DNA from: a virus
Taxonomy: Duplodnaviria; Heunggongvirae; Uroviricota; Caudoviricetes
Length of the DNA stretch: 64,000 bases
Direction: 5' to 3' (one strand)
Virus record (IMG/VR): IMGVR_UViG_3300022660_000063
Location: 1 to 64,000 of that record
Of this stretch, positions 15,903 to 62,993 are shown in pieces. Each line of letters begins with the position of its first letter. Positions within the stretch are counted from its first letter, which is position 1. Made by a program: the position numbers and the translations under genes. The notes under the pieces were generated by a model. It made no database searches. It saw nothing but the letters and a program-made list of their open reading frames with translations, and was not told the origin of the DNA.

Positions 15903-16463
15903 ATGAATTATGAATATAAAGATGAAAATATATATTTAAAATTGATAGAGGGTAATATCTATCGAGTAAAAGATAATAAAGATGTTAAATTAACAGAAGG
16001 CTATCATATACCTTATTTTACTTTTATAACAGAATTTGATGATAAATTATATTTTAAATATGATGAAAAATCATTTTATTATGATAAAAAATATAATATA
16101 ATTTATTTTGAATCTAAAAATAAGTTTATCTATAAAATAAATGGTAAAGATGTATCAAAAGAACAATTTGAAATTGAATTTCAAAAGCGGGTAGAAACTT
16201 ATATACCTTACAGTGAATATTGGCCAAAGAAAGAAGATTTAAGAAAAAACTTGCAAGAGCGTAGGGAGATGTGGTTTCCAACCTATGATAAAAGATATAA
16301 AGATAAGTTAGTTATTATCGATAAAGATTACTTTATGGCATGCGAAGAAGAGATACTTGAAATTGCAAATCTTGTAGAAGAAAATGAATATGATCCAGAA
16401 GATAATGATTCACTTAGAATTGCTATTGCATTATGGAATGCAGGATATAGAAAAGGAGAGTAG
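15903..16463 (+). CDS. hypothetical protein
   Basis: 186 aa, Lys/Tyr-rich; RBS present. Confidence 0.4.
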   Translation: MNYEYKDENIYLKLIEGNIYRVKDNKDVKLTEGYHIPYFTFITEFDDKLYFKYDEKSFYYDKKYNIIYFESKNKFIYKINGKDVSKEQFEIEFQKRVETYIPYSEYWPKKEDLRKNLQERREMWFPTYDKRYKDKLVIIDKDYFMACEEEILEIANLVEENEYDPEDNDSLRIAIALWNAGYRKGE

Positions 16464-16464
16464 T

Positions 16465-16815
16465 ATGAAAAAGAAAGGAAGATGCTGTTTTTGCAATGTT
16501 GAATATGATAATTATGGAAATGACATAAGACCATTAATTACTACTTCTGGAGATAGATGTTGTGATAAATGCAATGTATTAATTGTAATTCCAAATAGAA
16601 TTAAATTCTGGTTTACAGACATGTATATGTATGTTATTAAAAATAGAGATACAGGTGAATTTATAAATGAGTATGGTTTAGGTACAAATTACACTAATAT
16701 TGCAGATCCTACTGTATTAAAATTTAAAACAGAAGAAGATGCTCAACATCATATCGATATTGACCAATTATTTAATTGTGAAATTGTTAGATTAATTGTA
16801 AGAGAGGACGATTAA
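16465..16815 (+). CDS. Cys-rich (zinc-binding) hypothetical protein
   Basis: ATG 16465 after GGAGAG; 'CCFCNVEY...CCDKCNV'. Confidence 0.4.
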   Translation: MKKKGRCCFCNVEYDNYGNDIRPLITTSGDRCCDKCNVLIVIPNRIKFWFTDMYMYVIKNRDTGEFINEYGLGTNYTNIADPTVLKFKTEEDAQHHIDIDQLFNCEIVRLIVREDD

Positions 16816-16816
16816 T

Positions 16817-18088
16817 ATGGAGATAAAATTACCAAAATATGTTGAATTACTAATAAACATGTTAAATGAAAATGGTTATGCAGCATATGCAGTTGGTGGC
16901 GCTATTAGAGATTCTATATTAGGTATTGAACCAAAAGATTGGGATATAGCAACAAGTGCTTTACCTGCTGAAACAAAGAAACTATTTGAAGATAATAGTT
17001 TTCACAAGAGTGATATGGATATTTATTTTAAAGTTATTCCAACAGGAGAAAAATATGGCACTATGACTATTGAAGTTATAGAAAAATATAAATTAAATAA
17101 ATATGAACATCTTGCAGGTATTTATGAAATAACCACATTTAGATATGATAGCGATTACACTGATGGTAGAAGACCAAATAATGTAACTTTTGGTGAATCT
17201 ATTATAGATGATTTAGATAGAAGAGATTTTACTATGAATGCTATTGCTTATAACCCATTAGTAGGTATAGTAGACCCACATAATGGTGTTGAAGATATTA
17301 AAAATAAAATAGTTAAAGCAGTAGGAGACCCACAGGTTAGAATAAAAGAAGATGCTTTGAGAATTTTAAGGGGCATTAGATTTGCTTGTAAGTATAATTT
17401 TGAGTTAGAGAATGCAACAAGCAATGTTATAGCGGGTACTGGTAGTCTCTTAAAGAATGTATCAAAAGAAAGAATTACTGAAGAAGTTAAGAAGATATTA
17501 GAATATTCAAAAGGTAATTCTGAAACTTTAAATTCAACAATAGAAACACTAGCAGAGATATTTGAGATACCTCAAAACAAAGTAAGTAAATGGGGTAGTA
17601 ACCAGGTCATCATAGATATAGATAATGACAACCCACCTATGTTAAAGTTGTATTCAATATTGAATAAGTATAAGTCAATGATAGATGCAGAAATTTGGAT
17701 GAGGTTATATAAATATAGTAACCAACAAATCAAAGAGGTTATTAGCTATTATAAGATGTCAAAGTTTATGGAAGATGTTCAGCAACAAGATATTGTCCTA
17801 ACAATCAAGCAACTATTCAATAAATTTGAACATGCATACGTATGCAAGTATTTGGGTATTTACACAAAAATAGAAGGAATAGATTTGTCAGAAATTACAA
17901 GTCAACCATATAGATTACAAGACTTGGCAATAGATGGGCACTTTCTTCAATCTACATTTGATATAAGTGGTGAGAAGATAGGTAAGGTTCTTAATTTCTT
18001 ATTAGGCAAAGTTATGGAGAATTCCCAACTAAACACAATAGAAACTTTATCTGAAATTACAAGGAGATACTTAAATGGAGAAAATTAA
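16817..18088 (+). CDS. cca: CCA-adding tRNA nucleotidyltransferase / poly(A) polymerase family
   Basis: Head-domain motifs 'AVGGAIRDSILG', 'DWDIAT' and 'RRDFTMNAIAY'. Confidence 0.8.
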   Translation: MEIKLPKYVELLINMLNENGYAAYAVGGAIRDSILGIEPKDWDIATSALPAETKKLFEDNSFHKSDMDIYFKVIPTGEKYGTMTIEVIEKYKLNKYEHLAGIYEITTFRYDSDYTDGRRPNNVTFGESIIDDLDRRDFTMNAIAYNPLVGIVDPHNGVEDIKNKIVKAVGDPQVRIKEDALRILRGIRFACKYNFELENATSNVIAGTGSLLKNVSKERITEEVKKILEYSKGNSETLNSTIETLAEIFEIPQNKVSKWGSNQVIIDIDNDNPPMLKLYSILNKYKSMIDAEIWMRLYKYSNQQIKEVISYYKMSKFMEDVQQQDIVLTIKQLFNKFEHAYVCKYLGIYTKIEGIDLSEITSQPYRLQDLAIDGHFLQSTFDISGEKIGKVLNFLLGKVMENSQLNTIETLSEITRRYLNGEN

Positions 18089-23307: not shown

Positions 23308-24042
23308 ATGTATGATTATGAAGATTATTATAGAGAACCATCAGAGATAGAAGATTTATTTAATGAGTATTCAGCAAAATTACAAACAATGTTAAAGAAT
23401 GAGATTGTAAATAATGCTAAGAAATATGATGTAAATAAAGATGAAGTTAAAACTATGATGATGGTTGCGAATGGACTTAAAGAAGAGTATGAAAAGAAAC
23501 TTGAAGATTTTGATAATGAAATAAGTAAAGCAGCCCAAGAACAACATAATAAATGGTTAGAGAAATTACTCCACACTGATATTAAAGTTGGTGATACTGT
23601 TTATAAGATATATTCAAATGGGTATACTTATCTAACTTGTCCTTATTGTGAAAATGGAAAAGTTGCAGTCACTTTAGGTAATAGAATAGAATCTGTTGAT
23701 TGTCCTATTTGTAAAAATTATAGACCATCTCTACCTAAATATGAGTATAAAAAAGTTAGAGTAAGACAATTAAGTATGACTCTCACTTGTTCAGATAAGA
23801 ATGAAAAAGCTACTCCTTATGTTGATAATTGGGTAGATACATCTAATTATCCTTTTAATAAATTCCAATGTAATTGGTGCATTAGAGATGAGAATTGGGA
23901 CACTTTAACATCTGATAGAACTGCAAAAACAGAAGAACAGGCAAAACTACTTATTACTCATATTAAAGAAGAAGCAATAAGTAAATTAGAAGAAAAATAT
24001 GGTAAAGATAAAGTTCAAGATATGTTAAAGGAGATTGAATAA
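23308..24042 (+). CDS. hypothetical protein with zinc-ribbon motifs
   Basis: CPYCENGK...CPICKN and CNWC. Confidence 0.4.
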   Translation: MYDYEDYYREPSEIEDLFNEYSAKLQTMLKNEIVNNAKKYDVNKDEVKTMMMVANGLKEEYEKKLEDFDNEISKAAQEQHNKWLEKLLHTDIKVGDTVYKIYSNGYTYLTCPYCENGKVAVTLGNRIESVDCPICKNYRPSLPKYEYKKVRVRQLSMTLTCSDKNEKATPYVDNWVDTSNYPFNKFQCNWCIRDENWDTLTSDRTAKTEEQAKLLITHIKEEAISKLEEKYGKDKVQDMLKEIE

Positions 24043-24043
24043 A

Positions 24044-25360
24044 ATGGTTTTAAAAGTATTTGAAGAATTTGTAAATGAAATTAACTCTAGTAATTCTAGA
24101 TTATATAAAGAAGCTGTGTTAGATAAATATAAAGAAAATGAATATGTAAAACAAATAGTTCATTTTATATTCAACCCCTATATTGTCACAGGTATCTCAA
24201 AAAAGAAAATAGATAGAATTAAATCTTCATTTATAAGTAAAGAAGATATACCAGAAACTTATGATATATTTGACTTACTTAATTATGTTAAGTTGAATAA
24301 CACTGGTTCAGATTCAACTTTAATTGAAGTCTTAAAATGTGCTATGTCTAATAAAGATTATTCTGAACTTATATTTAAAATAGTTTCTAAAGATATTAAA
24401 TTGGGTATTCAATCAACAACTATAAATAAAATTTGGGGTGATAATTTTATACCTTGCTTCGACGTGATGTTAGCACAAAAATATTTTGACAATCCAGATA
24501 AACTTGTTCCAGAAGGGATTCAATTTATTTTGACTCCAAAGTTAGATGGTGTCAGATGTGTTTTAATTAACGATGGTTTTTCAGGTGCAAAATTCTTTTC
24601 CAGACAAGGTCAGTTAATAGAGCAATTGATAGAACTTGAAGAAGAAGCAAAACAGTTACCTATGGGTTATGTATATGATGGTGAACTACTGTTAGATAAC
24701 AAAGATAATTTAGAGAGTAAAGATTTATATAGGGCAACTGTAAAAGTTACTAGTGCAGATAAAGAAAAAACTAATCTTATATTCAATGTTTTTGACATGA
24801 TTCCAATTACAGATTTTCAAAATGGTTATTGTAATGCGCCTGCATCTTTAAGAAAAGAGCAATTATTAAAACAATTTACTTTTATGAAATTACCTCATAT
24901 AGTTGACGTTCCTATCTTATATTATGGTGATGATAAACAGGTTATTACTGAACAATTAGATATTATAACAGCTGCTGGAGGTGAGGGTGTCATGATTAAT
25001 ATTGCAGATGCCCCTTATGAATGTAAAAGAAGCAAAGGCTTACTTAAAGTTAAGAAAATGCAAACCTGCGATGTTAAAGTTGTTGGTATGGAAGAAGGTA
25101 CAGGAAAAAATAAAGGTAAACTTGGAGCATTAAAGATTGAATTTATTGGTCCTGATGGGTTTACTTATCAAAATGATGTAGGTTCGGGTTTGACTGATGA
25201 GGATAGAGAGTATTATTGGGATAACCCAGATAAAATTTTAAATAAAATAATTGAAATACAATATTTTGAAATATCAGCCAATCAACAAGGTACTTTTGGA
25301 TTAAGGTTTCCTGTATTCAAGTGGATAAGAGAAGATAAGACTGATATATCAATGTATTAA
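24044..25360 (+). CDS. ATP-dependent DNA ligase
   Basis: Motif I 'TPKLDGVRCV', III 'FNVFDM', IV 'EGVMIN', V 'LLKVKK'. Confidence 0.8.
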   Translation: MVLKVFEEFVNEINSSNSRLYKEAVLDKYKENEYVKQIVHFIFNPYIVTGISKKKIDRIKSSFISKEDIPETYDIFDLLNYVKLNNTGSDSTLIEVLKCAMSNKDYSELIFKIVSKDIKLGIQSTTINKIWGDNFIPCFDVMLAQKYFDNPDKLVPEGIQFILTPKLDGVRCVLINDGFSGAKFFSRQGQLIEQLIELEEEAKQLPMGYVYDGELLLDNKDNLESKDLYRATVKVTSADKEKTNLIFNVFDMIPITDFQNGYCNAPASLRKEQLLKQFTFMKLPHIVDVPILYYGDDKQVITEQLDIITAAGGEGVMINIADAPYECKRSKGLLKVKKMQTCDVKVVGMEEGTGKNKGKLGALKIEFIGPDGFTYQNDVGSGLTDEDREYYWDNPDKILNKIIEIQYFEISANQQGTFGLRFPVFKWIREDKTDISMY

Positions 25361-27998: not shown

Positions 27999-28081
27999 AT
28001 ATTTAGATAAAGTAGAGAAGAATGGTTCTTTCAAGAAAAATTATTTTCTTGAAAAAGTAGAATTATATGAGGAGGAAGAAA

Positions 28082-29236
28082 ATGCTTAAAACTATTCAAT
28101 TTATGAAGAGTCATGAAAATTGGAGAGAGTTGCTACAAGCTGCTCCTTATAATTTATTCATAAACGAAGATGAAAATTATGTATTATTAAAATATAATCA
28201 AATAAACTCAGATTTTAATGAAGATATATGCAGAGAATGTAGAGGTCTTATTATAGACAAAAATATTTTAGAGCCAGCAGCTTTATCTTTCTATAAATTT
28301 TTTAATGTCCAAGAAAGTTTTGCTGATAAGATAGACTGGGATAGTGCAAAAGTATTAGAAAAAGTAGATGGATCTAAGATGCTTGTGTGGTATGATGATT
28401 ACTTACATAAATGGAGGGTGTCTACTTCAAGTGAATTAGATGCAAGTAATGCTCCTGTTGGAGACTTTGGAATATCTTTTAGAGATTTATTTGACAGAGC
28501 TCTCTCAAATTATACTTTTCCAAACAATTCTTCTATGTTTGAATGCTTGAATAGATTATACTGCTATACATTTGAATTAGTAACTCCAGAATCTAGAGTA
28601 GTTGTTCCATATAGAAAAGATGCTTTATACTTGATTGGCGTAAGATGCAAATTCGCATTTGAAGAGTTAGATCCAAATTCTCTTGAGTTGAGTAAATTTA
28701 TTAAAACTCCAAAACAATTTCCTTTTCAAAATTTAAAAGAATGCTTGAATAGAGTAGAATATATGGGCTATGATGAAGAAGGATTTGTTGTAGTAGATAA
28801 ATATTGGAAAAGAATTAAGATTAAATCACCTGCATACGTAGCTGCACATTATTTAAAAAATAATGGAGTTAATTCAAGAGCAAAAATTCTTTCAATTATA
28901 GAAAAGAATGAGCAATCAGAATTTTTAGGACTATTCCCAGAATATACTGATTTATTTAATGAAATAGAAACTAAATATAAAGAAATGCAAAATAAAATAT
29001 ATGATGCTATTGATGATATGTTATTTAAAAGTAATACTTTCCTCTATGAAAATGAAAAAGAAAAACGAAAAGAACTAGCTAATTATATTTTAACTGAACA
29101 TAAAGACTTATCAGGGTTTCTATTTAAATATTTAGATATAGACCCAATAGAATATTTTATAAAGCAAGAATGGAAAGAATTATCTAAAGATAAGAAAATG
29201 AATTTATTAGGTTATAAATTAGAAAAAGAAGATTAA
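28082..29236 (+). CDS. RNA ligase 1 (T4 RnlA-like)
   Basis: 'ECRGLIID' (T4 ECRGIMF), 'KFFNVQES' (KFFNLNENP) and motif I 'EKVDGSKML' (TKEDGSLVS); GAGGAGG RBS then ATG 28082. Confidence 0.75.
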   Translation: MLKTIQFMKSHENWRELLQAAPYNLFINEDENYVLLKYNQINSDFNEDICRECRGLIIDKNILEPAALSFYKFFNVQESFADKIDWDSAKVLEKVDGSKMLVWYDDYLHKWRVSTSSELDASNAPVGDFGISFRDLFDRALSNYTFPNNSSMFECLNRLYCYTFELVTPESRVVVPYRKDALYLIGVRCKFAFEELDPNSLELSKFIKTPKQFPFQNLKECLNRVEYMGYDEEGFVVVDKYWKRIKIKSPAYVAAHYLKNNGVNSRAKILSIIEKNEQSEFLGLFPEYTDLFNEIETKYKEMQNKIYDAIDDMLFKSNTFLYENEKEKRKELANYILTEHKDLSGFLFKYLDIDPIEYFIKQEWKELSKDKKMNLLGYKLEKED

Positions 29237-32581: not shown

Positions 32582-33062
32582 ATGTGTTAAATGCGGAAAT
32601 GAAATTTTAACAGGAGATATCCATTGGGAAATGGGCTTATGTAACAACTGTTATAATGAATTATATAAAGACCATAAAACTCATATTAGTTTGGATAATA
32701 TGTGGTTGAAACTTGCTCAAGATTTTAGAGATGAGAACGAAAAATTGCAAGACAAGGTAACCGACCTAGAAGCAAAACTAGTATTGAAATCTTCATTTAG
32801 TAAGTTTACATTATCTGACGAGTTATATAAATTATATATAAATTTGGAAAGAGAATATACAAAATCAAGCCAAGAAATTGCTGAGAGAGGTAAAGAAATT
32901 GAAAAATTAAGAGTTATGTTAGATACCTCTTTAACAAAACTCCATAAAGCAAGGAGGAAAATAAATAGAGTATTATTGAAAATAGCTAAATTTGAAGCCG
33001 AATTAGATAATTATACTATACAAAATGAAACTTTCTTAAAGAGAGGCAATCAGCATGAATAA
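32574..33062 (+). CDS. zinc-ribbon plus coiled-coil hypothetical protein (GTG start)
   Basis: CVKCGN...CNNC. Confidence 0.35.
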   Translation: MSKCVKCGNEILTGDIHWEMGLCNNCYNELYKDHKTHISLDNMWLKLAQDFRDENEKLQDKVTDLEAKLVLKSSFSKFTLSDELYKLYINLEREYTKSSQEIAERGKEIEKLRVMLDTSLTKLHKARRKINRVLLKIAKFEAELDNYTIQNETFLKRGNQHE

Positions 33063-34035
33063 AGATATAAAAATAATAGGATTAGACATAGCAGAAGATA
33101 GGTTACCTAAACTGGTTGTGATGTGTGGTTTGCAAGGTTCCGGTAAATCAACTATTGCAGAAGAATTGAGTTTGAAATATAACATGATTGTATTATCTAG
33201 TGATAAATTAAGAAAAGAATTTCCAGATGAGAACAATGAATTTATTTTTAGACGCTTATATAATCAAGCAAATATAGCTTTGAAACAAGGATTAAATGTT
33301 ATCCTAGATGCAACTAATATTACAATTAAATCTAGAAAACAAATATTTTTAAATATAAAAGAACCTTGTAAAAAGATTTGTTACATAGTAAACACGCCTT
33401 ATGAAGTATGTATAGAAAGAGTTAAAAAAAGAAATGAAGATATAAATTCTCATCAAGTTCCATTAGAAGTGGTTAGAAGATATTTAGAATCTTTTGAAGT
33501 ACCTTTTTATGAAGAAGGATGGGACAACATATTACTGTATAATATTATAGGGCATAATGAGTCTGTAGAAAATTTTAATAATATGATGAAATCTGCATTT
33601 GGATTTGACCAACATAATAAACATCATACTCAATTATTACATGAACATTTAGAATCGGTTGCTAATCAATTATATGATATAGATAATGTTTTATATGAAG
33701 CAGGATTATTACATGATATAGGCAAACTTGATACGCAGACATATAAAGAAAATGACCCTAATGCACATTACTATAATCATGCCAATGTTGGTGCTTATAA
33801 AGTATTATGTAATTATATGTCTTGGTATATGATAGAACAATTAGGAGAAGATTATCCTAAATATGATACTACATTAGATATAGTATTTTACATAAATTAT
33901 CATATGCATATGTATAATATTAAAACTGAAAAATCTGAAAGGAAGTGGAGACAAGTATTTGGGGATATAAAATTTAATAATTTAAAATTGTTAAATGAAG
34001 CTGACCAATTTAATCATAGTAAGGAGATAAAATAA
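33055..34035 (+). CDS. polynucleotide 5'-kinase (T4 Pnk-like P-loop) fused to an HD phosphohydrolase domain
   Basis: Walker A 'MCGLQGSGKST' and 'ILDATNITIKSRKQ' (Pnk-like); C-terminal 'HHTQLLHEHL....GLLHDIGKL....YNHANVGAY' HD motifs. Confidence 0.75.
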   Translation: MNKDIKIIGLDIAEDRLPKLVVMCGLQGSGKSTIAEELSLKYNMIVLSSDKLRKEFPDENNEFIFRRLYNQANIALKQGLNVILDATNITIKSRKQIFLNIKEPCKKICYIVNTPYEVCIERVKKRNEDINSHQVPLEVVRRYLESFEVPFYEEGWDNILLYNIIGHNESVENFNNMMKSAFGFDQHNKHHTQLLHEHLESVANQLYDIDNVLYEAGLLHDIGKLDTQTYKENDPNAHYYNHANVGAYKVLCNYMSWYMIEQLGEDYPKYDTTLDIVFYINYHMHMYNIKTEKSERKWRQVFGDIKFNNLKLLNEADQFNHSKEIK

Positions 34036-35922: not shown

Positions 35923-36951
35923 ATGTTTAAAGATGTAATAGAAGAATTAGGATTAACTGAAGAACAACTTAAAGACAAAGAAATTTGTAATTTTGCTATG
36001 CAATATGCATATAGAAAACAACAAGGAGATTGGATTCAATTTAAAAATGGAAATGGTATCTGCGAGATAAATAGAAAAGATGGAACACAAATAACTACTG
36101 TTTTATCAGATGAAGAATTTAAAGCAGATTTTCCACTTAATTGTGATATGTCTATATCTGAAAGATGTAACATGGGTTGTAAATTCTGTTATTTGGAGTG
36201 TACACCAAATGGTAAAGAAGCTAACATTAAAAAATTTATTGAAGATAAAAATAGTTTCTTATACTCTTTGCACCCTGGCACTGAATTGGCAATTAATGGT
36301 AATGAACCTTTACATGAAGATTTAGATTTATTATTAGAATTTTGTAAAGAAAGAGACATACTTGCAAATTTAACTGTTAATGAAATTACTTTGATGAGAA
36401 ATAAAGAAATTATCGAGAAATGGTTAGATGATAGTTATATTCATGGTATTGGTGTTAGTCCATCTACTTACACACAAAATATGATTGATTGGTGTAAAGA
36501 ACATTCAACATCTGTTATTCATACTATTGCAGGTATAACCACAGCAGAGCAATATAACCAATTGAAAGACCAGGGTTTAAAGATACTTATTTTAGGGTAT
36601 AAAGAATTTGGTAGAGGTGTAGATTACAATTTATTTTTAGGAGACAAAGTTTCTAAAAATATCAAATGGTTAAAAGAAAATATATTAGATTTAACTGAAC
36701 ATTTTGAAGTAACATCTTTTGATAACTTAGCTATCGAACAACTTGAGATGAAAGGGAAATTAAGTGAGAAAACATGGTCATCTTTTTATAGAGGAGATGA
36801 AGGTTCACATACAATGTATATAGATTTAGTTAATGAAACTTTTGCTAAAAATAGCATTCAATCAAGAAGTAATCATTATAAATTAAAAAATAATATAAAT
36901 GAGATGCTTGAAATCGTTCAATGCCCTGAATTAAATCAAATTTGGAGATAA
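35923..36951 (+). CDS. radical SAM domain protein
   Basis: 'CNMGCKFCYLEC' CxxxCxxC cluster about 85 aa from the N-terminus; 342 aa. Confidence 0.65.
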   Translation: MFKDVIEELGLTEEQLKDKEICNFAMQYAYRKQQGDWIQFKNGNGICEINRKDGTQITTVLSDEEFKADFPLNCDMSISERCNMGCKFCYLECTPNGKEANIKKFIEDKNSFLYSLHPGTELAINGNEPLHEDLDLLLEFCKERDILANLTVNEITLMRNKEIIEKWLDDSYIHGIGVSPSTYTQNMIDWCKEHSTSVIHTIAGITTAEQYNQLKDQGLKILILGYKEFGRGVDYNLFLGDKVSKNIKWLKENILDLTEHFEVTSFDNLAIEQLEMKGKLSEKTWSSFYRGDEGSHTMYIDLVNETFAKNSIQSRSNHYKLKNNINEMLEIVQCPELNQIWR

Positions 36952-38263: not shown

Positions 38264-38566
38264 AAAAGTAAACTCCAGTGTAAACCTTACTTAAATAATT
38301 AAAGTTTGCTACAAAGCTTCTATATAAGCGCTTATATAAATATATTATAGAGACTTAAAGTCTCTATAAATAATATTAATATATATAATATATGCTTGAT
38401 ATAGATTGATTATGATAGCTATAGCGCAGCAAAAATTATGAAAAATAATATTTATGTAAACTCTAAACGAGTTTACAGCGCTAAAATTAAAAAATTTAAT
38501 CCAAACAGAATTTAATTTCAAAAGTTTTAGCTAAATTTATCGTAAAGAGGAGATACTAGAAGATAG
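38264..38566 (+). promoter_or_regulatory. palindrome-rich intergenic hub between early and late-type regions
   Basis: Perfect palindromes tatataagcgcttatata (38321-38338) and tatagagactt-a-aagtctctata (38346-38368). Inverted repeat gtaaactc-taaac-gagtttac (38456-38476). Four GTAAAC direct repeats at 38228-38285. AGCTAAATTTAT motif at 38529-38540. Confidence 0.5.
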
Positions 38567-40036
38567 ATGAATGCAATAGCTAGAATATATGGTAATAGTA
38601 AACATCCAGATATAAGTGGAGAAGTTAAATTTACCCAGTTGGACGATAAAGTAAAAATTACAGCTGATATAAAAGGATTACCAAAATCAACTTTCTTAGG
38701 ATTTCATATACATGCTAAAGGTAATTGCTCAGGAGATGAGCAAGATGAATTTAAAGATGTAGGTAAGCATTACAATCCAGATAGAAAAAGACATCCAAAT
38801 CATAAAGGTGATTTATCTTCTATAAATACATCAACCGGAAAAGTTCATATAGAACAAGAAACAGATAGATTTACAGTCGATGAAATCATTGGAAAAGCAA
38901 TTATATTGCATTCACAGAGAGATGATTTTACAAGTCAACCAGCAGGTGATGCTGGAGATAAGATAGCATGTGGAGTGATAAGAGAAATGAAATTATTAGA
39001 AAATGAATCAAAAAATCCTTTAAAAGATGCAGAAGAATTTGCTAAAAAGCATCAAAAAGGATTAGGAGCATTTGTTAAGTTGAACGCTGGTAATGTAGAA
39101 AAAGGGATAGCAACATTTAATAAAAATATGGGATCTAGTGAAACAAGTACATCTAGCACAGCTATGAGTGAAAGCATAGAATATAAAGGAATTGAATTAA
39201 CTTCAAATAATAAAGAAGAATCAAAAGAAGATATAATAGATAATTTATCAGGCATTGTTGATGATATAGTAAGGGCTGGTTATTTTAACTATTCTGATAT
39301 AATTAGAGTAGAAGAAGTTATAGATGAAAAAACCTTTGATAACTCGCATTTAATTATAACAACGAAAGATGAAGGACCTAAATTATTTACATATGTTGGT
39401 GGTAGGCTGTACAACTACGAACCAAGAGAATATATTAATAGGGGAGTTGAATCAAAGATGAATATCAGAGAAGAATTAAATAAGATTGATATGGATACTT
39501 GCGAAACCGATTTAGTTAATATGTATGAAGCTTGTAAGTTAACAAATGAGGATAAAAAACAAATAGTCGCATTGTTGCAAGAAAATAAAGTAGAAGATCT
39601 AAATAAATTTTTAGAATCTAAATTATTTGAAGATGAACTTGATCCTGAAACATTAGATGAAAATGATTATTCTGAAGAAGATTTAAAAATGTTTGCTAAT
39701 ATGATTAGAGTAAATAGTCCGCGTTTTAGAGGTGATCCATATCCTCCATTCGCAGAAACAAAGATAAATGAATCTAATATCCCAGATAATATGAGATTTA
39801 AAATGTGGGATAGTGAAGTTACAAGTGATGATGTTATCGAATTTACTTGGATAACTCAAGGAGAGTTTACAACTGAAGATTCAGAAATGTTTATAAAAGA
39901 AATAAAAAGAGCTATTAATGCTTTAATAGACAGTTCTAGATTCGATCAACCATTTACTCTTGCCCTAGAAGTAAGATCAAGATCAGGATATGAAAATGGG
40001 CATTTAGTGATAGATTTAGATTTTAACCGAGAATAA
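38567..40036 (+). CDS. Cu/Zn superoxide dismutase (SodC) domain fused to a 350-aa C-terminal region of unknown function; no signal peptide
   Basis: 'GFHIHAKGNC', 'GKHYNP', 'RKRHPNHKGDL', 'AIILHSQRDD' and 'GDAGDKIACGVI'. These reproduce every Cu and Zn ligand position of SOD1/SodC (H46, H48, H63, H71, H80, D83, H120); the R143 equivalent is Lys. Confidence 0.8.
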   Translation: MNAIARIYGNSKHPDISGEVKFTQLDDKVKITADIKGLPKSTFLGFHIHAKGNCSGDEQDEFKDVGKHYNPDRKRHPNHKGDLSSINTSTGKVHIEQETDRFTVDEIIGKAIILHSQRDDFTSQPAGDAGDKIACGVIREMKLLENESKNPLKDAEEFAKKHQKGLGAFVKLNAGNVEKGIATFNKNMGSSETSTSSTAMSESIEYKGIELTSNNKEESKEDIIDNLSGIVDDIVRAGYFNYSDIIRVEEVIDEKTFDNSHLIITTKDEGPKLFTYVGGRLYNYEPREYINRGVESKMNIREELNKIDMDTCETDLVNMYEACKLTNEDKKQIVALLQENKVEDLNKFLESKLFEDELDPETLDENDYSEEDLKMFANMIRVNSPRFRGDPYPPFAETKINESNIPDNMRFKMWDSEVTSDDVIEFTWITQGEFTTEDSEMFIKEIKRAINALIDSSRFDQPFTLALEVRSRSGYENGHLVIDLDFNRE

Positions 40037-40045
40037 GGAGGTTGA

Positions 40046-40858
40046 ATGAAATTTTTATCAAATTCAACAAAAATAAAATGCATCGTGGCCAGTGTTTTAA
40101 CTGGCCTTGCATTCATTACTTTAATAATGCTAACAAGTTTATTAACAGTTACATTTGAAAGTAAATTGACTATGACTTTTATATACACAATAAGTTTAAT
40201 GTTAATTTTACTTATTTGGCAAGGTATATTACAAATAAATGTATTTACTGATTATAAAGCTAAACGAAATTATCTATGTGCAGATGGTATATTAACCTTA
40301 TGTATGGGTGCTTTAATAATTATAAGCGGTATATTATTAAGTGTATTGCAATTAGATAAAATAATGCATGGTATATTTATAGGTACTTCAGACATAAGAA
40401 TATTCTTAACTTGTTTTCTTTCAGTTATAGGTATATGGAAAATATTTGTTACAATTAGAAGTATAAAAGAAAAACATTTCAATTGGTGGTGTGAATTATT
40501 ATTTAGTATATTATGGATTGGATTAGCAATTACTTGTTTATTAACAATGTTTATAAGTTCACAAGCACTGCTTTGGATTATGATTTCAATTGCTTGGGCT
40601 TTAATAGTTCTTACAATATTCTATATGCTTTATAGTTATGTAATTAAAAAACCAGACTACTTAGAAACAGAAGAAGCTATAAAAGAATTAGAAGAACAAA
40701 TGGAAGAAGAACAAGCAAAGAAAGATAAAAATCAAAAAATAACTTCTTCATTTAGACTTCAAGATAAGTTAAGAAAGTTAAAAGAATTGAAAGATAACAA
40801 TTTAATAACAGAAGAAGAATATAATCAAAAGAAAAATCAATTATTAGATACTTTGTAA
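40046..40858 (+). CDS. polytopic membrane protein with C-terminal SHOCT-like motif
   Basis: About 6 TM helices; C-terminus 'KLKELKDNNLITEEEYNQKKNQLL'. Confidence 0.45.
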   Translation: MKFLSNSTKIKCIVASVLTGLAFITLIMLTSLLTVTFESKLTMTFIYTISLMLILLIWQGILQINVFTDYKAKRNYLCADGILTLCMGALIIISGILLSVLQLDKIMHGIFIGTSDIRIFLTCFLSVIGIWKIFVTIRSIKEKHFNWWCELLFSILWIGLAITCLLTMFISSQALLWIMISIAWALIVLTIFYMLYSYVIKKPDYLETEEAIKELEEQMEEEQAKKDKNQKITSSFRLQDKLRKLKELKDNNLITEEEYNQKKNQLLDTL

Positions 40859-41265: not shown

Positions 41266-41303
41266 AAAATTAAAATAGGAGCAGGTTATTTAATCTAATA
41301 ACC

Positions 41304-41315
41304 TGCTAAATTTAA
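41304..41315 (+). promoter_or_regulatory. TGCTAAATTTAA motif copy, preceded by hairpin gcaggttat..ataacctgc
   Basis: Perfect 9-bp inverted repeat 41281-41289 / 41298-41306; motif ends 25 nt upstream of ATG 41341. Confidence 0.4.
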
Positions 41316-44191: not shown

Positions 44192-45058
44192 ATGTCATAT
44201 AATTTATTACTTGATACAAAATTTGAAAACGATCAATGAAAATTTATAAACTGCAGATATGAAAATGGCAAACTTACTTCTAGTTCAAAAATATTTGGTA
44301 TTGAACAAGAATTGATTTTACCAGATCTAACAAAATTATATTTCAGATGTAATTATATGACTGCTTCGAAAGATATCACAGAAGTTAAGATAGGCATACT
44401 TAATAAAAATACTTTGGATATAGATAAACGTTTCCCAAAATATTTAAAATGGAATAATATATCAGTCATAGATTACAGCAAGCAAGAGAAAATAAAAGTA
44501 CATCTAATATTTGAGTCTACAGAAGATATCAACGAAGTATATATAAAAGAACCAATATTAGTAGATTTAAATTATTTACATAAATCTACATGGTTAAAAA
44601 TAATACTAGATAGAACTATAAATTATCTACCTGGCTATTCATATAAAAATGAGTATAAAGAATTACAATTAACTGAAAATAATACTGATTTTAATGTGCT
44701 AAATAGAGAACAAGCTAAAATAGGTTTAATAATTAAAGAAAGTGAAAATAAAGAAGTTACTTTAAATGCTAAATTTATTAGTAATAGGTATTATCTCGTT
44801 AAACTAGATTTTGAAGAAATAAATCAATTAGGTAACCTTTATTTCAAATATGGTTTTTTGAAATCAACTAGAATAAAAGATCAAATATATTTAGTGTTTA
44901 AAGCTAGAGAAAATGAAGACTTAAAATTAATAATTGAACCTAATTCAGAATTATCTTACTGGTTAAATATAAAACATCTGATGATAATTGAGATAACGAA
45001 ATTAAAATTATTAAGAGAAGATATAATAAATCTTCCATATATTGAAGGAGACGCATAA
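44192..45058 (+). CDS. hypothetical protein (288 aa) with in-frame TGA=Trp at 44237
   Basis: AAGGAG RBS then ATG 44192; 'MSYNLLLDTKFENDQ[W]KFINCRY...' joins in frame to track ORF 44312..45058. Confidence 0.5.
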
Positions 45059-45927
45059 TGCAATTTAAAAAATTATTAGAAGATATTAACGACGGGTGGG
45101 AGTTAGAAGATAACTATGATGTTGATTTAAATGTATTAGATGACATGAATAGTTTTATCTATGAGATAAGAAATACTATAAGAGGCGCATATACTAAAGC
45201 AACTACTTATAAAGAATTAGCTACATATATTAGAAATGATCTAATACAGCCGTTAGAATACTTAGCTCAAGATATTGAAAATATAAAAGAAAATGATATA
45301 GATGAATCATTAAAAGAATCTAACGAGGAAATAGAAGATATATCTTATTTAATATTCGATAGTACATACGGCAATAAAGAAGTAGAAGAATTAGATGTTT
45401 CATCCCTTAGTGAAGTAGATCATTATTATAAACTAATTAAAACAGTCAATGAAGCTGAAAAATTTAATTATCACTCAGATTACTGAGGTTATGATGAAGA
45501 TTATCAAGAACAAAATACTGAATTAATAAAGGCTTTAAGTCCTTTTATAAATAAAACTGTTGAAATTGAATATGAAGATGGTTATATAAGAGGTAAACTT
45601 TTAGGTATAGCGATTGATAGACAATATAATAGTATAAGTCACACTAAGGTTATCTTAGATACAATCGAAGAAGTAGCAGAAGAATCTCTAAATGAAACAG
45701 CTGAATTAGATAAAAAAGTATCTATATTAAGAAAGAAAATAAGTATGCTAGATGATAAGGGCTATAAAGAAGGATATGATAAAGTAATAATATCTAACAA
45801 TATAAAAGATACCATTGAAAATCATTTAACAAGATATAAAGATGAGTTAGCAAAAATTTATGATAGTGAAGAATTCTTCGAAGAAGATAAATTAGATTTA
45901 GATGAAGCGCATGGGTTAAAGGAGTAA
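45058..45927 (+). CDS. hypothetical acidic protein (289 aa) with in-frame TGA=Trp at 45484
   Basis: Track ORFs 45058..45486 and 45745..45927 are in the same frame and continuous, with no other stop: '...NYHSDY[W]GYDEDYQEQ...'. Confidence 0.55.
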
Positions 45928-50681: not shown

Positions 50682-50816
50682 TGACAATAGAAGAACAAAT
50701 ATATAAAGCAAATAGAATAAGATTAGATATACTCTTAGAGGCTAAAGAAATAACCTTAGATGAATATTATTATCAACTTAATATAAATAATAAAAAACTT
50801 TATAAAGAGGCCTAAA
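50682..50816 (+). CDS. possible small ORF (44 aa) followed by terminator
   Basis: ATG directly after TAA; followed by a weak hairpin and TTTTTT (50806-50832). Confidence 0.25.
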
Positions 50817-50830
50817 AAGCTTCTTTTTTA

Positions 50831-50842
50831 TTGCTAAATTTA
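50831..50842 (+). promoter_or_regulatory. TGCTAAATTTAT motif copy upstream of the tail-fiber cluster
   Basis: Exact 12-mer. Confidence 0.4.
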
Positions 50843-50936
50843 TTGATAATTAAAATAAAGCTTGTTGAACTAGAGATAGTTACTGTATAGCGAAAATTAA
50901 AATTGAATAAATTCAGCCTATTTTATATAGGTAATT

Positions 50937-58522: not shown

Positions 58523-58534
58523 TGCTAAATTTAT
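58523..58534 (+). promoter_or_regulatory. TGCTAAATTTAT motif copy
   Basis: Exact 12-mer 13 nt upstream of ATG 58548. Confidence 0.4.
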
Positions 58535-59706: not shown

Positions 59707-59931
59707 ATGGGACAAGTTATAGTAAAAAGTCCATCTTCTGGAAGTACCTTTAATCTTATGTCATGTGTTTCAATGGGAGATATGACATTTAAAGATGCTG
59801 TTCAATTTTATGATATGACTTTTAAATTATATAAAACAAATTACACGATAAATGAACAGGATTATTCAGAAGAAAATTTAGAAGAATTATCCAGTATTTT
59901 ATCTACATTAGCATTTGGAGGAAATAATTAA
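59707..59931 (+). CDS. small hypothetical protein
   Basis: GGGAGG RBS then ATG 59707. Confidence 0.35.
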   Translation: MGQVIVKSPSSGSTFNLMSCVSMGDMTFKDAVQFYDMTFKLYKTNYTINEQDYSEENLEELSSILSTLAFGGNN

Positions 59932-59932
59932 T

Positions 59933-61243
59933 ATGACAATGACAGCAAGTCAACTTTTTAAAGTTACATCAATTTTAGAAACTGCAAGACAAGATGGCGT
60001 TAAGAATTTAAAAGCAAAAGGTATAACTATTCCAGATAGTTCAAGTATTCCTGCTATTATTGGTAATATAAACAATATAACAGGTCAAACTATCATAAAT
60101 ACTACGGAATTAAAAGCAACTGGGGATAGAATAATTACAGCAGCAGACCTACCTAATACAACTTTTACTTTGTACAAAGATGATAGTTTACTACAAACAC
60201 TAACAAATGCTGATGAAGCTTATGTGGTAGCGTTTTCAGTTACTGATGATGGTGAGTATATAATAAAAGCAACCAGAGATTCTGAAGAAAAATGGCAAAA
60301 TAGTATCAATGTACAAGGTGTTGGTCAATACAAATGCACTATGAAATACTATAATGAAGTAACTAAATCTGCAATAGGTAATTACATACCAACTTATAAA
60401 TCTTTAAAATATACATGGGAAGAATTGCAGGAAATTTCTGAAGCAGGATTTGGAGAATATGTATTTGAATTTGATGGATTTGAATACATGCAAACTAATT
60501 TTATGGCTAAAGGAGCAACAAGTGAATATAGCAGAGCTTATTTAGTGCATATAGATGAAGAAAATAACTTAATATTTTGTTATTATAATTTCAATAGCAC
60601 ATATAAAATGTTTAATACATCTGGAACAAATAGTAATGGTATATCTTGGATGGGATGCATACCAAGAACAAATTCATTACCAGCAGGCGCTACTCAATAC
60701 ATATATGATTGGACAGTTACTGATTCAACAAATGGTACATATTATAAATACGAAATAGAAGCTTCTACATTTGTTCCTGTATTATTACCAGATGAGTACA
60801 ATAATGAAACAAAATATTACAAGAAAACAGAAATTGCTGAAGATGGTGTGTTCTTAGCTTCATTAAAAGAACAATTAGGAACAGTTAGCCCAAGATTAAA
60901 AAATATCAAAACATGGCAAGGTTGTGGTGCTGGGGTTACAGTGAGCACAGATGATTTAATATTAACAACTCAAGATTATATGTGGCTACCTAGTGATAGC
61001 AATATATTTGGTGACACTAAGAGATTTGATGATTACTCTAAATTCTGGCTTGAAGGAGAAACATTTAAAGCATTTAAGAATTATAACGAGATATTATTTA
61101 GATTCTCAAGTAGTGCTAGATGGCTTAGATCCCCTTACGTTCCCTCTTCTTCGAACTATTTCTGTACTTGGTACATCCATGGTTATTCGTCCAACACCAA
61201 TATGACGACTAGTTTTTCTGTTCCTCTCTGCTTTTCAATCTAA
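59933..61243 (+). CDS. DGR target (variable) protein, receptor-binding candidate; VR occupies the last about 35 codons
   Basis: C-terminus '...SPYVPSSSNYFCTWYIHGYSSNTNMTTSFSVPLCFSI' corresponds codon-for-codon to TR 'YPYVNSSSNNFCNWNNNGYSNNNNMTNSNYVPL' (AAY codons in TR). Confidence 0.75.
   Translation: MTMTASQLFKVTSILETARQDGVKNLKAKGITIPDSSSIPAIIGNINNITGQTIINTTELKATGDRIITAADLPNTTFTLYKDDSLLQTLTNADEAYVVAFSVTDDGEYIIKATRDSEEKWQNSINVQGVGQYKCTMKYYNEVTKSAIGNYIPTYKSLKYTWEELQEISEAGFGEYVFEFDGFEYMQTNFMAKGATSEYSRAYLVHIDEENNLIFCYYNFNSTYKMFNTSGTNSNGISWMGCIPRTNSLPAGATQYIYDWTVTDSTNGTYYKYEIEASTFVPVLLPDEYNNETKYYKKTEIAEDGVFLASLKEQLGTVSPRLKNIKTWQGCGAGVTVSTDDLILTTQDYMWLPSDSNIFGDTKRFDDYSKFWLEGETFKAFKNYNEILFRFSSSARWLRSPYVPSSSNYFCTWYIHGYSSNTNMTTSFSVPLCFSI
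61132..61236 (+). repeat. DGR variable repeat (VR)
   Basis: About 105 bp; 17 mismatches to TR, every one at a TR adenine. Confidence 0.8.
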
Positions 61244-61256
61244 TAATCTAAATAAT

Positions 61257-61278
61257 CTGTTCGCCGAAAGGTGAACAG
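61257..61278 (+). promoter_or_regulatory. hairpin with GAAA tetraloop immediately 3' of VR (DGR target-recognition stem-loop)
   Basis: ctgttcgcc-gaaa-ggtgaacag: 9-bp stem (one G-T pair). Confidence 0.6.
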
Positions 61279-61303
61279 TGAGTATATAAAAGGAAATTTT
61301 AAC

Positions 61304-61699
61304 ATGGTTCCATCGTATATGAGAACATTAAGTAAAACTCAATATGTTTATGAAAGTGTTATGCTTAGAAAATTAGTAGCAAGCACTATTGTTAATAAAT
61401 TCTCTAAAAAATATACTTTCTATGGGCTACAATCAACATTTAAATTAATAGATAGAGTTATGCAATGTTGCGTACTTGCTAATCAATGTGATTTGACAAC
61501 AAGTTTTGAAAAACGAAGAGAATTATTGACAGAAGCTCTACACACTTTAAATTTATTCTCTATTGAATTTGAATGCATATTGGAGTATAATAATACTATC
61601 ACAGATGGAATGCTTAATAAGATATTTGAAAAAACTGACTACCTAGAAAAATTAATTAAAGGTGTTATAAACTCGGATAAGAAACGAGTTTCAAAATAA
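61304..61699 (+). CDS. avd: DGR accessory variability determinant (Avd-like, 131 aa)
   Basis: Small basic helical ORF between VR and TR, the canonical position and size for Avd; AAGGA RBS. Confidence 0.6.
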   Translation: MVPSYMRTLSKTQYVYESVMLRKLVASTIVNKFSKKYTFYGLQSTFKLIDRVMQCCVLANQCDLTTSFEKRRELLTEALHTLNLFSIEFECILEYNNTITDGMLNKIFEKTDYLEKLIKGVINSDKKRVSK

Positions 61700-61721
61700 C
61701 ATTGGTGTGCGGTTGATTATA

Positions 61722-61826
61722 CCCTTACGTTAACTCTTCTTCGAACAATTTCTGTAATTGGAACAACAATGGTTATTCGAACAACAACAATATGACGAAT
61801 AGTAATTATGTTCCTCTCTGATTTTA
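61722..61826 (+). repeat. DGR template repeat (TR)
   Basis: Non-coding copy of VR, rich in AAC/AAT. Confidence 0.8.
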
Positions 61827-61979
61827 CTTAAATAATGCCAGACATAGTAGATATTTATTGAAACCGGCTAAATTAATAAAAGGAACCGCACTTCCATAGC
61901 AATTAAAAGCTAAAAATAAAAACCTCCTAATATATTTTACTCAAGATTAGGAGTAACTAATATTACATAGGAGATTATA

Positions 61980-62993
61980 TTGAAAAATAAAACTTTTAAA
62001 GAAGTTTTTACATATAAAAATTTATTGGTTTGTGCTAATCTATGCTTTAGAAATGTTAGATGAAAGCAAAGCATCCAAAATTTTGAAATTCAAAAGCATA
62101 GATTAGTAAATAGAATATTTAGACAATTGCATGCTGGGAGTTACAAATCACCTGGATACTTTGAATTCACTAAAAGCTGCAGAGGAAGAACTAGAAATAT
62201 AAAAGCTGCACATATTAGTGAAAGAATTGTACAAAAATGCTTATGTAGATATTACTTAAACAATCTACTCGGAAGATCCTTAATATATGATAATGGAGCT
62301 ACAATAAATGGTAAAGGCTATATATTTACTTTAGATAGATTATTTGTACATTTAAATAAATACTATAAAAGATATCATACTAATGAAGGTTATATATTAA
62401 AGATAGATTTTAGCAAATATTTTGATAATATAGATCATAATATTCTATTAAGTAAAGCAAGAAATTATATAAAAGACGATAAGATATATAATCTGTATAA
62501 ACATTTTATAGAGAAAGCCAGTAGAGAGAAAGGAATAGCATTAGGAAGCGAAATTTCGCAGATAAATTCTTTGTTCTATGTTAATGAGTTAGATCATTTA
62601 ATCAAAGAAAAATTACATATTAAATTTTATGGTAGATATGTAGATGATTGTTATCTGATATGCAGTAGTAAAGAAGAATTAAAAAACTGTCTGCGAGTAA
62701 TATACGAAGTTTGTAATAAATTAAAAATAATTATAAATAAAAATAAGACAACTATCAGTAAATTAAAACAATTTACTTGGTTAAAAATTCAATTCCGTTT
62801 ACAATCTAATGGTAAAATAACAAATAAAAATTCATATAAAACTCGAAAGAACTTATTTAGAAAAGAGAAATACCTTAGATCAAAATATGGGATAAATAGC
62901 AACCAATACACCAATTATAAAGGTTCATTTGAAGGTTATATAAAGGAGTATATACATGTTCAAGGTAAAAGACGAAATAAAAATACCTTTTAA
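61980..62993 (+). CDS. DGR reverse transcriptase (337 aa; TTG start, in-frame TGA=Trp at 62061)
   Basis: RT motifs 'ILKIDFSKYFDNIDHNIL' (A/2), 'GIALGSEISQINSLFYVNELD' (B') and 'YGRYVDDCYLI' (C, YxDD). The N-terminal 'FKEVFTYKNLLVCANLCFRNVR[W]KQ' DGR-RT-like region is reached only by reading through the TGA; AGGAG sits 7 nt upstream of TTG 61980. Confidence 0.8.

Follow-up and report, generated by a model that had tools for sequence, protein, structure and literature searches.

What use might a phage that is likely to infect an anaerobic Firmicute have for a copper/zinc superoxide dismutase (Cu/Zn SOD), and for one that continues into some 350 further residues? This question is raised by a gene in the IMG/VR virus record IMGVR_UViG_3300022660_000063 (Caudoviricetes), of which we analyzed positions 1 to 64,000, a 64-kb window of the ~154-kb genome of a gut phage; one relative was recovered from human gut metagenomes of the Hadza. 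The gene encodes a protein of 489 amino acids (aa) that begins with a Cu/Zn-SOD domain and proceeds through four small modules, here termed L, X, N and C (Table 1). From its sequence it appears to join, in frame, two phage genes that were once separate: the SOD half is a phage copy, long resident, of a leaderless Cu/Zn-SOD subfamily widespread among strictly anaerobic gut Clostridia, and the second half is a gene composed of the four mobile modules. As the most likely role of the SOD we tentatively propose that of an accessory cytoplasmic enzyme, which would protect oxygen-sensitive enzymes of the phage. An assembly artefact as the source of the fusion was ruled out, because 38 blocks of the assembly collection index the identical fused open reading frame (ORF), which was read on 24 of the contigs carrying it. 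Three of these 24 are Joint Genome Institute (JGI) contigs of 154.3-154.4 kb, on which the fused gene lies at different offsets, as would fit a genome that is complete and circularly permuted.

The Pfam model Sod_Cu (PF00080) matches residues 16-138 of the protein over its full length (E=1.4e-31; 110.1 bits against a gathering cut-off of 28.9), the best solved structure among the PDB matches is 7b4o (E=2e-21), and PHROG 1975, annotated as 'superoxide dismutase precursor', is also matched (E=3.7e-13). Ligands were mapped with a MAFFT alignment of the domain to human SOD1 and mature E. coli SodC. In this alignment H47, H49, H68 and H115 correspond to the Cu ligands (human H46, H48, H63 and H120), while the bridging H68 together with H76, H79 and D82 corresponds to the Zn ligands (human H63, H71, H80 and D83), and D119 aligns with the human bridging residue D124. 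Two cysteines, C54 and C135, occupy the prokaryotic disulfide position, C54 being equivalent to the E. coli SodC position and C135 to human C146. An earlier note, made from the sequence alone, had read the domain as retaining every metal ligand, and so it does: the alignment puts these residues at canonical positions. The seven ligands are furthermore invariant across 13 phage-family domains (48-67% identical) and 53 further homologues (40-68% identical) obtained in a search with SOD residues 1-142, which points to selection on metal binding. Among the 53 homologues the disulfide cysteines are likewise maintained, in 51 at the C54 position and in all 53 at the C146 position. At 12.1%, the G+C content at third codon positions (GC3) is the same in the SOD domain and in the phage nrdD gene, which argues that the copy has long been resident in the phage and is not a recent import; a recent horizontal acquisition is rejected on this fully phage-like value.

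The domain nonetheless departs from well-studied SODs at two places of its active site. The position of the catalytic Arg143 of human SOD1 is taken by Lys132, and Lys is found there in 12 of the 13 phage-family domains and 37 of the 53 homologues, with Arg in 13 of the latter. In addition, only two residues (H-P-N-H) separate the second and third Zn ligands in the Zn subloop, as compared to eight in human SOD1 and the canonical seven to eight, a truncation common to all 53 homologues. The three NCBIfam SodC equivalog models also score the domain far below their cut-offs (NF007628, 44.2 versus 165; NF047631, 52.3 versus 230; NF047632, 47.9 versus 250 bits), marking it as a member of a divergent subfamily. 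These three features would fit a domain that is no dismutase at all, serving rather as a metal-binding module in Cu/Zn buffering or a chaperone-like function, or else as a purely structural β-barrel. Arg143 has been described as 'very highly conserved' in other CuZnSODs (PMC8382915), and inactive versions of the fold have precedents in domain II of CCS and in B. subtilis YojM, chains of which are among the PDB matches. However, the seven ligands, the D124 equivalent and the disulfide pair are all kept across sequences that are only 40-68% identical. Known non-catalytic SOD-like proteins such as YojM, CCS domain II and the poxvirus SOD-like proteins have lost ligands, and human SOD1 with the Arg143Lys change is reported to keep substantial activity; both points count against a non-dismutase function, which we consider unlikely.

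The domain also lacks any leader. Its first strand starts at residue 3, and an in-frame TAG (38564-38566) is the codon directly preceding the ATG, so that a signal peptide or other N-terminal extension is impossible; neither the signal peptide nor the lipoprotein signal typical of periplasmic SodC is present. The earlier note had seen this correctly and set it against the periplasmic SodC of bacteria. The missing leader is not a novelty of the phage, since all 53 closest homologues and 80 bacterial loci are also leaderless and stand alone, the 53 mostly as proteins of 141-185 aa. N-terminal extensions of the 53 homologues measure 0-26 aa, except in P0173 (81 aa, hydrophilic) and P0175 (41 aa); they are hydrophilic in all but P0175, and their maximal 10-residue Kyte-Doolittle mean stays below 1.9, versus 2.99 for the signal peptide of E. 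coli SodC. We also considered a Tat or Sec signal for the bacterial homologues and rejected it, as RR motifs are present with no hydrophobic region after them. A scan of species-representative genomes with the two motifs DDF[TK]SQP[AS]G and HPxH[AS]GDLP[PS] returned at least 581 species genomes with confirmed leaderless SOD loci. The best 80 of these at least 581 loci derive almost entirely from gut Clostridia (Oscillospiraceae, Acutalibacteraceae, Lachnospiraceae, Ruminococcus, Christensenella and Monoglobus) and are 42-51% identical to the phage SOD domain. Reading each of the 80 onward from the stop codon before it allows an N-terminal extension of no more than 32 aa in 77 of them; a hydrophobic stretch occurs in none of the 80, C-terminal tails are at most 12 aa in every case, and not one of the 80 is fused to another domain. 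Loci L012-L091 from bacterial genomes and proteins P0174-P0222 represent this subfamily in our collection. One of its clusters, named 'superoxide dismutase family protein [Christensenellaceae bacterium]', occurs on 669 contigs with a maximal length of 1.43 Mb, and one bacterial copy was found among housekeeping genes, an ordinary chromosomal context.

The phage protein and all 53 homologues carry the subfamily signatures H-P-x-H-x-G-D and DDF[TK]SQP[AS]G, which in the phage protein take the form HPNHKGD and DDFTSQPAG. Like the bacterial members, the phage protein has no hydrophobic N-terminus, but it is set apart from these stand-alone proteins by its 350 extra residues. As the bacterial homologues are both leaderless and stand-alone, the absence of a leader is inherited, and the fusion is the part specific to the phage. 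A literature search recovered no paper describing this leaderless subfamily and no biochemical characterization of it. Bacterial Cu/Zn SODs are otherwise regarded as extracytoplasmic, that is, periplasmic or surface-located. Should the leaderless Clostridial SODs be active in the cytoplasm, they would contradict this view and would constitute a widespread class of cytoplasmic Cu/Zn SODs; we hold this to be more likely true than the cargo-delivery system discussed further below. The phage domain thus points to a large and apparently unstudied SOD subfamily of strict anaerobes, with a truncated Zn loop and usually a Lys in place of the catalytic Arg.

We infer that the SOD domain would bind Cu and Zn and clear superoxide from the infected cell's cytoplasm, presumably like its bacterial homologues. 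The window offers two candidate targets for protection, both expected to be sensitive to oxygen and superoxide: the anaerobic, glycyl-radical ribonucleotide reductase NrdD, with ATP-cone and Gly_radical domains, and a probable radical S-adenosylmethionine (radical-SAM)/iron-sulfur (Fe-S) protein encoded 1.6 kb upstream of the SOD gene. Under this proposal the SOD would be a dispensable accessory function, called upon when the anaerobic host meets oxygen, and the C-terminal modules would not be needed for catalysis and would at most tether or localize the enzyme. That the phage of an anaerobe possessing NrdD and a probable radical-SAM protein keeps an SOD provides a testable idea on how such phages cope with exposure to oxygen in the gut. 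Several points weigh against the proposal. The bacterial cytoplasm is reducing and contains very little available copper, and a disulfide-containing Cu enzyme is unexpected there. Either change in the active site, the Arg143 position being Lys or the Zn subloop having lost six residues relative to human SOD1, could lower or alter activity, and the SodC equivalog scores lie far under their cut-offs (52 versus 230, 48 versus 250 and 44 versus 165). Moreover, what ties the SOD to NrdD and the radical-SAM protein is a co-occurrence in one genome only, and the proposal offers no account of why fusion to the L, N and C modules recurs.

The sequence around the junction suggests how the fusion came about. 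The SOD ends in '...ACGVIRE', where the stand-alone SODs stop, with 'MKLLEN' directly after it, and a sequence of the form M-K/R-F/L-L/I-K is kept right after the end of the SOD in several other fusions. M141 is probably the relic start of a formerly separate downstream gene, and the fusion probably arose by loss of a stop codon. Related loci of the phage clade share a gene order comprising a DNA ligase, an RNA ligase, an AAA_33 kinase, a ~340-aa ORF, small ORFs, the modular gene and a 130-aa ORF; the ~340-aa ORF, which occupies the position of the probable radical-SAM gene of the window, has no Pfam match in any of these loci. The state of the SOD differs from one locus to another. In locus L010 it is a separate gene of 154 aa (P0171, 68% identical), followed by a separate leucine-rich repeat (LRR) protein and a 551-aa protein, and in locus L008 the gene at the position of the SOD fusion (P0016) has L, C and N without an SOD. 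Locus L003 (Logan SRR12711116, positions 9487-9925) shows ~88% DNA identity to the window and preserves the promoter-like motif and the start codon, but lacks 101 nucleotides (nt; window 38692-38792), a deletion with short junction homology that removes the H47-H76 region and shifts the frame. A further ~830 nt are inserted there between the SOD and the L module, and the downstream modules are intact despite the loss of the metal-binding core. The SOD domain is by this evidence dispensable, which agrees with an accessory role and would also fit the idea, raised above, that the domain does something other than dismutation. Comparison of the SOD remnants of L003 with the window gives seven synonymous and nine nonsynonymous differences in one and ten and nine in the other, numbers too small to judge relaxed constraint.

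The same mobility is seen within the window itself. The ORFs 45046-45483 and 45487-45924 are 47-62% identical to segments that are fused to the SOD in P0005 and P0006, and the ORF 16378-16812 is 31-38% identical to the zinc-ribbon segment of P0004-7 and P0016-17, so that these modules occur as free genes as well as within fusions. Taken across these relatives, the SOD fusion appears to be evolutionarily labile. This raises the possibility that the fusion as such has no function, having been caused by stop-codon loss, with L-X-N-C still being made from M141 and the full-length protein tolerated as a by-product. The GGAG and 'MKLLEN' start lying exactly where stand-alone SODs end, the M-K-F/L-L/I-K-E junctions of other fusions, the alternation of stand-alone and fused states among close relatives, and the occurrence of segments of P0005 and P0006 as the separate ORFs just mentioned would all be explained in this way. 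On the other hand, the identical fused ORF recurs throughout the 38 assembly blocks and the 24 contigs read, and SOD fusions of several architectures persist in the clade, suggesting that they are harmless and maybe favoured. We consider a functionless fusion quite improbable; as far as the SOD half is concerned, it is compatible with an accessory cytoplasmic SOD. Downstream of the modular gene, the stretches 16292-17335 of L008 and 13608-18220 of L007 encode an AAA_5 (MoxR-like) ATPase, a DUF2201_N protein and several BspA-type LRR_5 proteins.

The ~350 residues following the SOD were described in the earlier note as one domain of unknown affinity. The length is confirmed, and no match to them was found in Pfam, PHROGs, NCBIfam or PDB sequences, the PDB search with residues 141-489 returning only noise; but they are not a single domain, being instead composed of four separable modules. 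These were delimited with iterated hidden Markov models (HMMs) on 170 collected sequences, 21 of which contain the SOD domain (residues 3-139). A search with the full-length protein recovered 18 clusters that share pieces of it in varied order, and an exhaustive search with residues 141-489 gave 200 proteins at E<=1e-3. Modules L, X, N and C are shuffled among proteins on short metagenomic contigs and on large (~115-165 kb), mostly phage-like contigs. L usually comes first, separated from N by 15-300 residues, whereas C is free in its position, occurring alone (~100-150 aa) or within proteins of up to 1751 aa. The SOD is equally variable in its placement: it is N-terminal in the window protein, P0004, P0005 and P0010-12, comes after an extension of 68 residues in P0006, P0007 and P0009, lies internally in P0003 and P0013-15, and stands at the C-terminal end of P0008 and P0058. 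Module C displays the motifs GPxYRGA, INExxIPDNMRxK, TQExF and RDGxxYG, and one module of the L/N/C family, modelled with confidence, is an orphan domain that has invariant polar residues. A single-sequence AlphaFold model of the whole protein is of low confidence (predicted local distance difference test, pLDDT, 43), and module N is helical in this low-confidence model.

Partners of the modules give few hints of function. Pfam searches on 70 partner proteins (alignment A1) yielded almost nothing, with single matches to LRR_5, DUF7678, WWE_4 and zinc ribbons. DUF4428-like zinc ribbons are present in P0004-P0006 and LRR_5 in P0009, a weak Pol-beta nucleotidyltransferase match was obtained in P0013, and in P0013-15 a ParB/Srx-like 'EGRHR' motif, seen by eye, accompanies the SOD. 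One of the 70 partners has a weak Ferritin-like Pfam match (E=4.6e-4), which, if real, would mean that a second metal or oxidative-stress domain has been joined to the same L/N/C modules. A profile search with module C recovered no proteins with names, tblastn of this module against known phages gave nothing even at E<=1, and the 489-aa protein and the C-domain alignment found no related loci in viral, genome or metagenome collections. Solo C-domain genes follow a GH25 lysozyme gene, which is not informative. L, N and C thus appear to form a shuffled module family without annotation, a piece of sequence dark matter exposed by the SOD fusion gene.

The modular gene is preceded by a short promoter-like motif. 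Positions 38529-38540 read AGCTAAATTTAT, agreeing with TGCTAAATTTAT at 11 of 12 positions; the earlier note had placed the motif 26 nt upstream of the ATG, and while this distance is right, the sequence at that place is AGCTAAATTTAT and not TGCTAAATTTAT. The 11-mer GCTAAATTTAT is present in five copies in the window, all on the + strand, as against 0.31 expected and a maximum of two in 100 shuffles. When one mismatch is allowed the 12-mer has six copies on the + strand (2539, 38529, 41304, 44767, 50832 and 58523), four of which lie 13-26 nt before a start codon with a Shine-Dalgarno sequence; one is 163 nt upstream of the next ORF, and an exact copy (44768-44778) lies within the ORF 44312-45058, at a position kept in L003. 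Three copies follow terminator-like hairpins; besides that of the SOD gene, a terminator with the motif directly after the hairpin is seen at 41280-41315 and ~50810-50843. In L003, L008 (P0016) and L009 (P0012, with one mismatch) the motif is likewise found 25-27 nt ahead of the orthologous modular gene, and it is also kept upstream of the orthologue of the ORF at 41341. It contains a -10-like TAAATT. A sigma-70 promoter with a -35 box was considered for the SOD gene and rejected, no such box being listed or seen by eye. The motif is a real regulatory element, most simply a promoter; alternatively it may act as an RNA-level leader element.

The earlier note had gone further, treating the motif as a pattern of tail-fibre genes and the SOD as a late, possibly virion-associated product. 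Neither the tail-fibre connection nor the lateness is borne out. The genes behind the motif are heterogeneous; none of them matched a known structural protein or has demonstrable tail-fibre homology, and the two putative 'tail-fibre' ORFs had no match when compared with known phages. One copy (2539) lies between a phosphoesterase gene and nrdD, and the recognizable genes upstream of the SOD encode nucleotide and RNA-repair enzymes. The copy at 58523 precedes an ORF just upstream of the target of a diversity-generating retroelement (DGR), and the ORFs at 52785 and 54549 have weak LRR_5 and β-propeller matches, which together are the only indirect support for a receptor-binding neighborhood.

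The possibility that the SOD enters the cell with the virion can be weighed on this background. Here the protein would be packaged and injected, and L, N and C would be a scaffold that targets interchangeable cargo (SOD, zinc ribbons, LRR, nucleotidyltransferase- or ParB-like domains) into the capsid for entry with the DNA. The architecture of the family, with variable heads strung like beads on recurring L, N and C modules, is in keeping with this, as is the union of the SOD in P0013-15 with the weak Pol-beta nucleotidyltransferase (P0013) and the 'EGRHR' motif, both of these being types known from polyvalent proteins (PMC5512222). The polyvalent-protein-associated domain LPD11 is encoded ~7 kb downstream in the syntenic L008, the motif also precedes genes near the DGR-diversified, probably receptor-binding protein, and the SOD of PBCV-1, which is late and packaged (PMC7019647), is a precedent. 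The window protein, however, has no MPTase, MuF, LPD, helicase or methylase domain, and almost nothing known appeared among the 70 module partners; SOD is also not among the domains of the polyvalent-protein survey (no occurrence of 'superoxide dismutase'). None of the window ORFs searched, which included all the larger ones, was recognized as a capsid, portal, terminase or tail gene, and the upstream neighbors belong to metabolism and RNA repair, while the separate 154-aa SOD gene of L010 implies that targeting by fusion is not obligatory. Packaging in the virion is less likely than a cytoplasmic role, and we regard it as rather unlikely. A bolder version is still more doubtful than a functionless fusion: L, N and C would be the address and scaffold of an undescribed cargo-delivery system of ~135-165 kb phages, probably with gut Firmicute hosts, in which an active SOD head is injected with the DNA. 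If true, the phage would carry an antioxidant of its own into a strictly anaerobic cell as it enters.

Table 1. Features of the SOD fusion gene and its surroundings in the 64-kb window (columns: feature, position, strand, remarks)
ORF of 489 aa, SOD-L-X-N-C mosaic protein	38567..40036	+	ATG start, TAA stop
Cu/Zn-SOD domain, residues 3-139	38573..38983	+	leaderless Clostridia-type subfamily; Pfam, PDB, alignments
Metal-binding core, H47 to D82	38705..38812	+	H47, H49, C54, H68, H76, H79, D82; short H-P-N-H Zn subloop
Fusion junction	38972..38989	+	GGAG, 11 nt, then ATG (M141, 'EMKLLEN')
Module L, residues 150-193	39014..39145	+	'NPLKDAEEFAKKHQKGLGAFVKLNAGNVEKG...'; in 79 of 170 proteins, usually upstream of N
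Module X, residues 217-288	39215..39430	+	rare, in 5 of 170 proteins including small stand-alone ones
Module N, residues 298-351	39458..39619	+	'NIREELNKIDMD...'; in 69 of 170 proteins
Module C, residues 374-481	39686..40009	+	orphan α/β domain; in 114 of 170 proteins
Promoter-like motif GCTAAATTTAT	38530..38540	+	preceded by A, not T; ends 26 nt before the ATG
Shine-Dalgarno sequence GAGGAG	38548..38553	+	13 nt before the ATG; read from the sequence
Terminator-like hairpin	38345..38369		palindromic; within the 300-nt intergenic region upstream of the SOD gene
Probable radical-SAM/Fe-S protein	35923-36951		PHROG Fe-S oxidoreductase / radical SAM match, CxxxCxxC motif, without Pfam match
Nucleic-acid repair set	16817-18088, 24035-25360, 28067-29236, 33055-34035

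The wider window has a G+C content of 27.8%, and almost all of its ORFs of at least 90 aa are on the + strand. In addition to the genes mentioned above it encodes a peptide deformylase, a phosphoesterase, a nucleotidyltransferase, a polymerase-like protein and an inorganic pyrophosphatase. A nucleic-acid repair set consists of a CCA-adding tRNA nucleotidyltransferase, an ATP-dependent DNA ligase, a T4-type RNA ligase and a polynucleotide-kinase-like AAA_33 protein, and is of the kind that mends tRNAs after cleavage by anticodon nucleases of the host; related loci also carry the ligase, RNA ligase and kinase in this order, the stretches fetched there not reaching the CCA-adding enzyme. The sole match to a 'tail' category among the window ORFs searched is to a T4 RNA-ligase family, and searches of Pfam, PHROGs and NCBIfam gave nothing structural for most of the neighboring ORFs searched. 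Megablast with 8 kb found no near relative among 50,697 deposited phage records, and tblastn of the 489-aa protein against known phages gave three matches only, confined to the SOD. Rfam and tRNA scans of the window were empty.

Immediately downstream of the fusion gene, the gene at 40046-40858 encodes a 270-aa multi-pass membrane protein (hydrophobic segments judged by eye) with a C-terminal SHOCT domain (E=6.5e-10) and a weak match to EAD11, an effector-associated domain; it is missing from this position in some relatives. The complete DGR cassette extends over 59915-62993. Its reverse transcriptase ORF (62127-62993) matches PHROG 1423 (E=3.8e-57) and Pfam RVT_1 (E=2.3e-20), and its variable repeat of 107 nt (61129-61235) forms the 3' end of a 442-aa ORF (59915-61243). 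The template repeat (61719-61825) is 85% identical to the variable repeat, every core mismatch being an A in the template copy, and a 142-aa ORF (61271-61699) occupies the place expected for the Avd accessory gene. The 442-aa protein is probably the diversified, receptor-binding or other binding protein. The nrdD ORF (5681-8776; 1031 aa) contains an in-frame insertion of ~300 residues with a GIY-YIG domain (residues 480-555), which splits the NRDD match and could be an intein-like or intron-derived homing-endonuclease insertion; no group I intron was found in the window by Rfam.

The polyvalent proteins (Iyer, Burroughs, Anantharaman, Aravind 2017, PMC5512222) are comparable to the window protein as phage multi-domain proteins with unrelated modules in variable order; with five separable modules that take other orders in its relatives, the window protein is likewise multi-domain, and nucleotidyltransferase- and ParB-like modules in the relatives and the LPD11 gene near the L008 locus add to the resemblance. 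It is, however, much smaller, SOD is not a described component of polyvalent proteins, and none of their hallmarks (zincin-like MPTase, LPDs, DdrB-ParB, SNF2, methylase, MuF, ART) was detected in the window protein, where Pfam finds Sod_Cu only, or in the 70 partners. The giant-virus SODs, such as A245R of PBCV-1 and the SOD of Megavirus chilensis (4u4i, E=1.5e-9 among the PDB matches), are also leaderless viral Cu/Zn SODs, but they are of eukaryote type, stand-alone and from viruses of aerobic hosts, with packaging shown experimentally, whereas the window SOD is fused and the host of its phage is probably an anaerobe. A245R is a late gene whose packaged product lowers superoxide early in infection (PMC7019647). 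The prophage SodC proteins (SodCI of Salmonella Gifsy-2 and SodC-F of E. coli O157:H7, PMC2569942; PHROG 1975) share with it the status of a phage-borne accessory Cu/Zn SOD, but possess a signal peptide, stand alone, and are expressed from the prophage to act in the periplasm against host oxidants, unlike the leaderless, fused SOD of the window. No integrase was recognized among the window ORFs searched in this large phage genome, integration genes not having been looked for specifically.

Of bacterial enzymes already characterized, the CuZnSOD from Bacteroidetes bacterium GWA2_30_7 (7b4o/7b4p; Mol Biol Evol 2021, PMC8382915) has the same bacterial CuZnSOD fold, the prokaryotic disulfide position and a short electrostatic loop, but differs in being periplasmic with a leader and in keeping Arg143 and a full-length Zn subloop. 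The closest counterparts are the leaderless SODs of Clostridia (e.g. MBS1479677.1 and PWM63827.1 from metagenome-assembled genomes, MAGs, of Christensenellaceae, and those from Oscillospiraceae, Acutalibacteraceae and Lachnospiraceae MAGs), which at 42-51% identity belong to the same subfamily and agree with the phage domain in the seven ligands, the Cys pair, the H-P-x-H subloop, the frequent Lys and the lack of a signal peptide. They differ from it in being stand-alone and chromosomal, whereas the phage copy is fused and has a phage-like codon composition. Viral and prophage Cu/Zn SODs being already known, the enzyme itself is not new; what is unusual here is a leaderless SOD of the Clostridial type fused to orphan mobile modules, and the main value of the locus lies in the leaderless SOD subfamily and the L/N/C module family to which it leads, rather than in the idea of a virion SOD.

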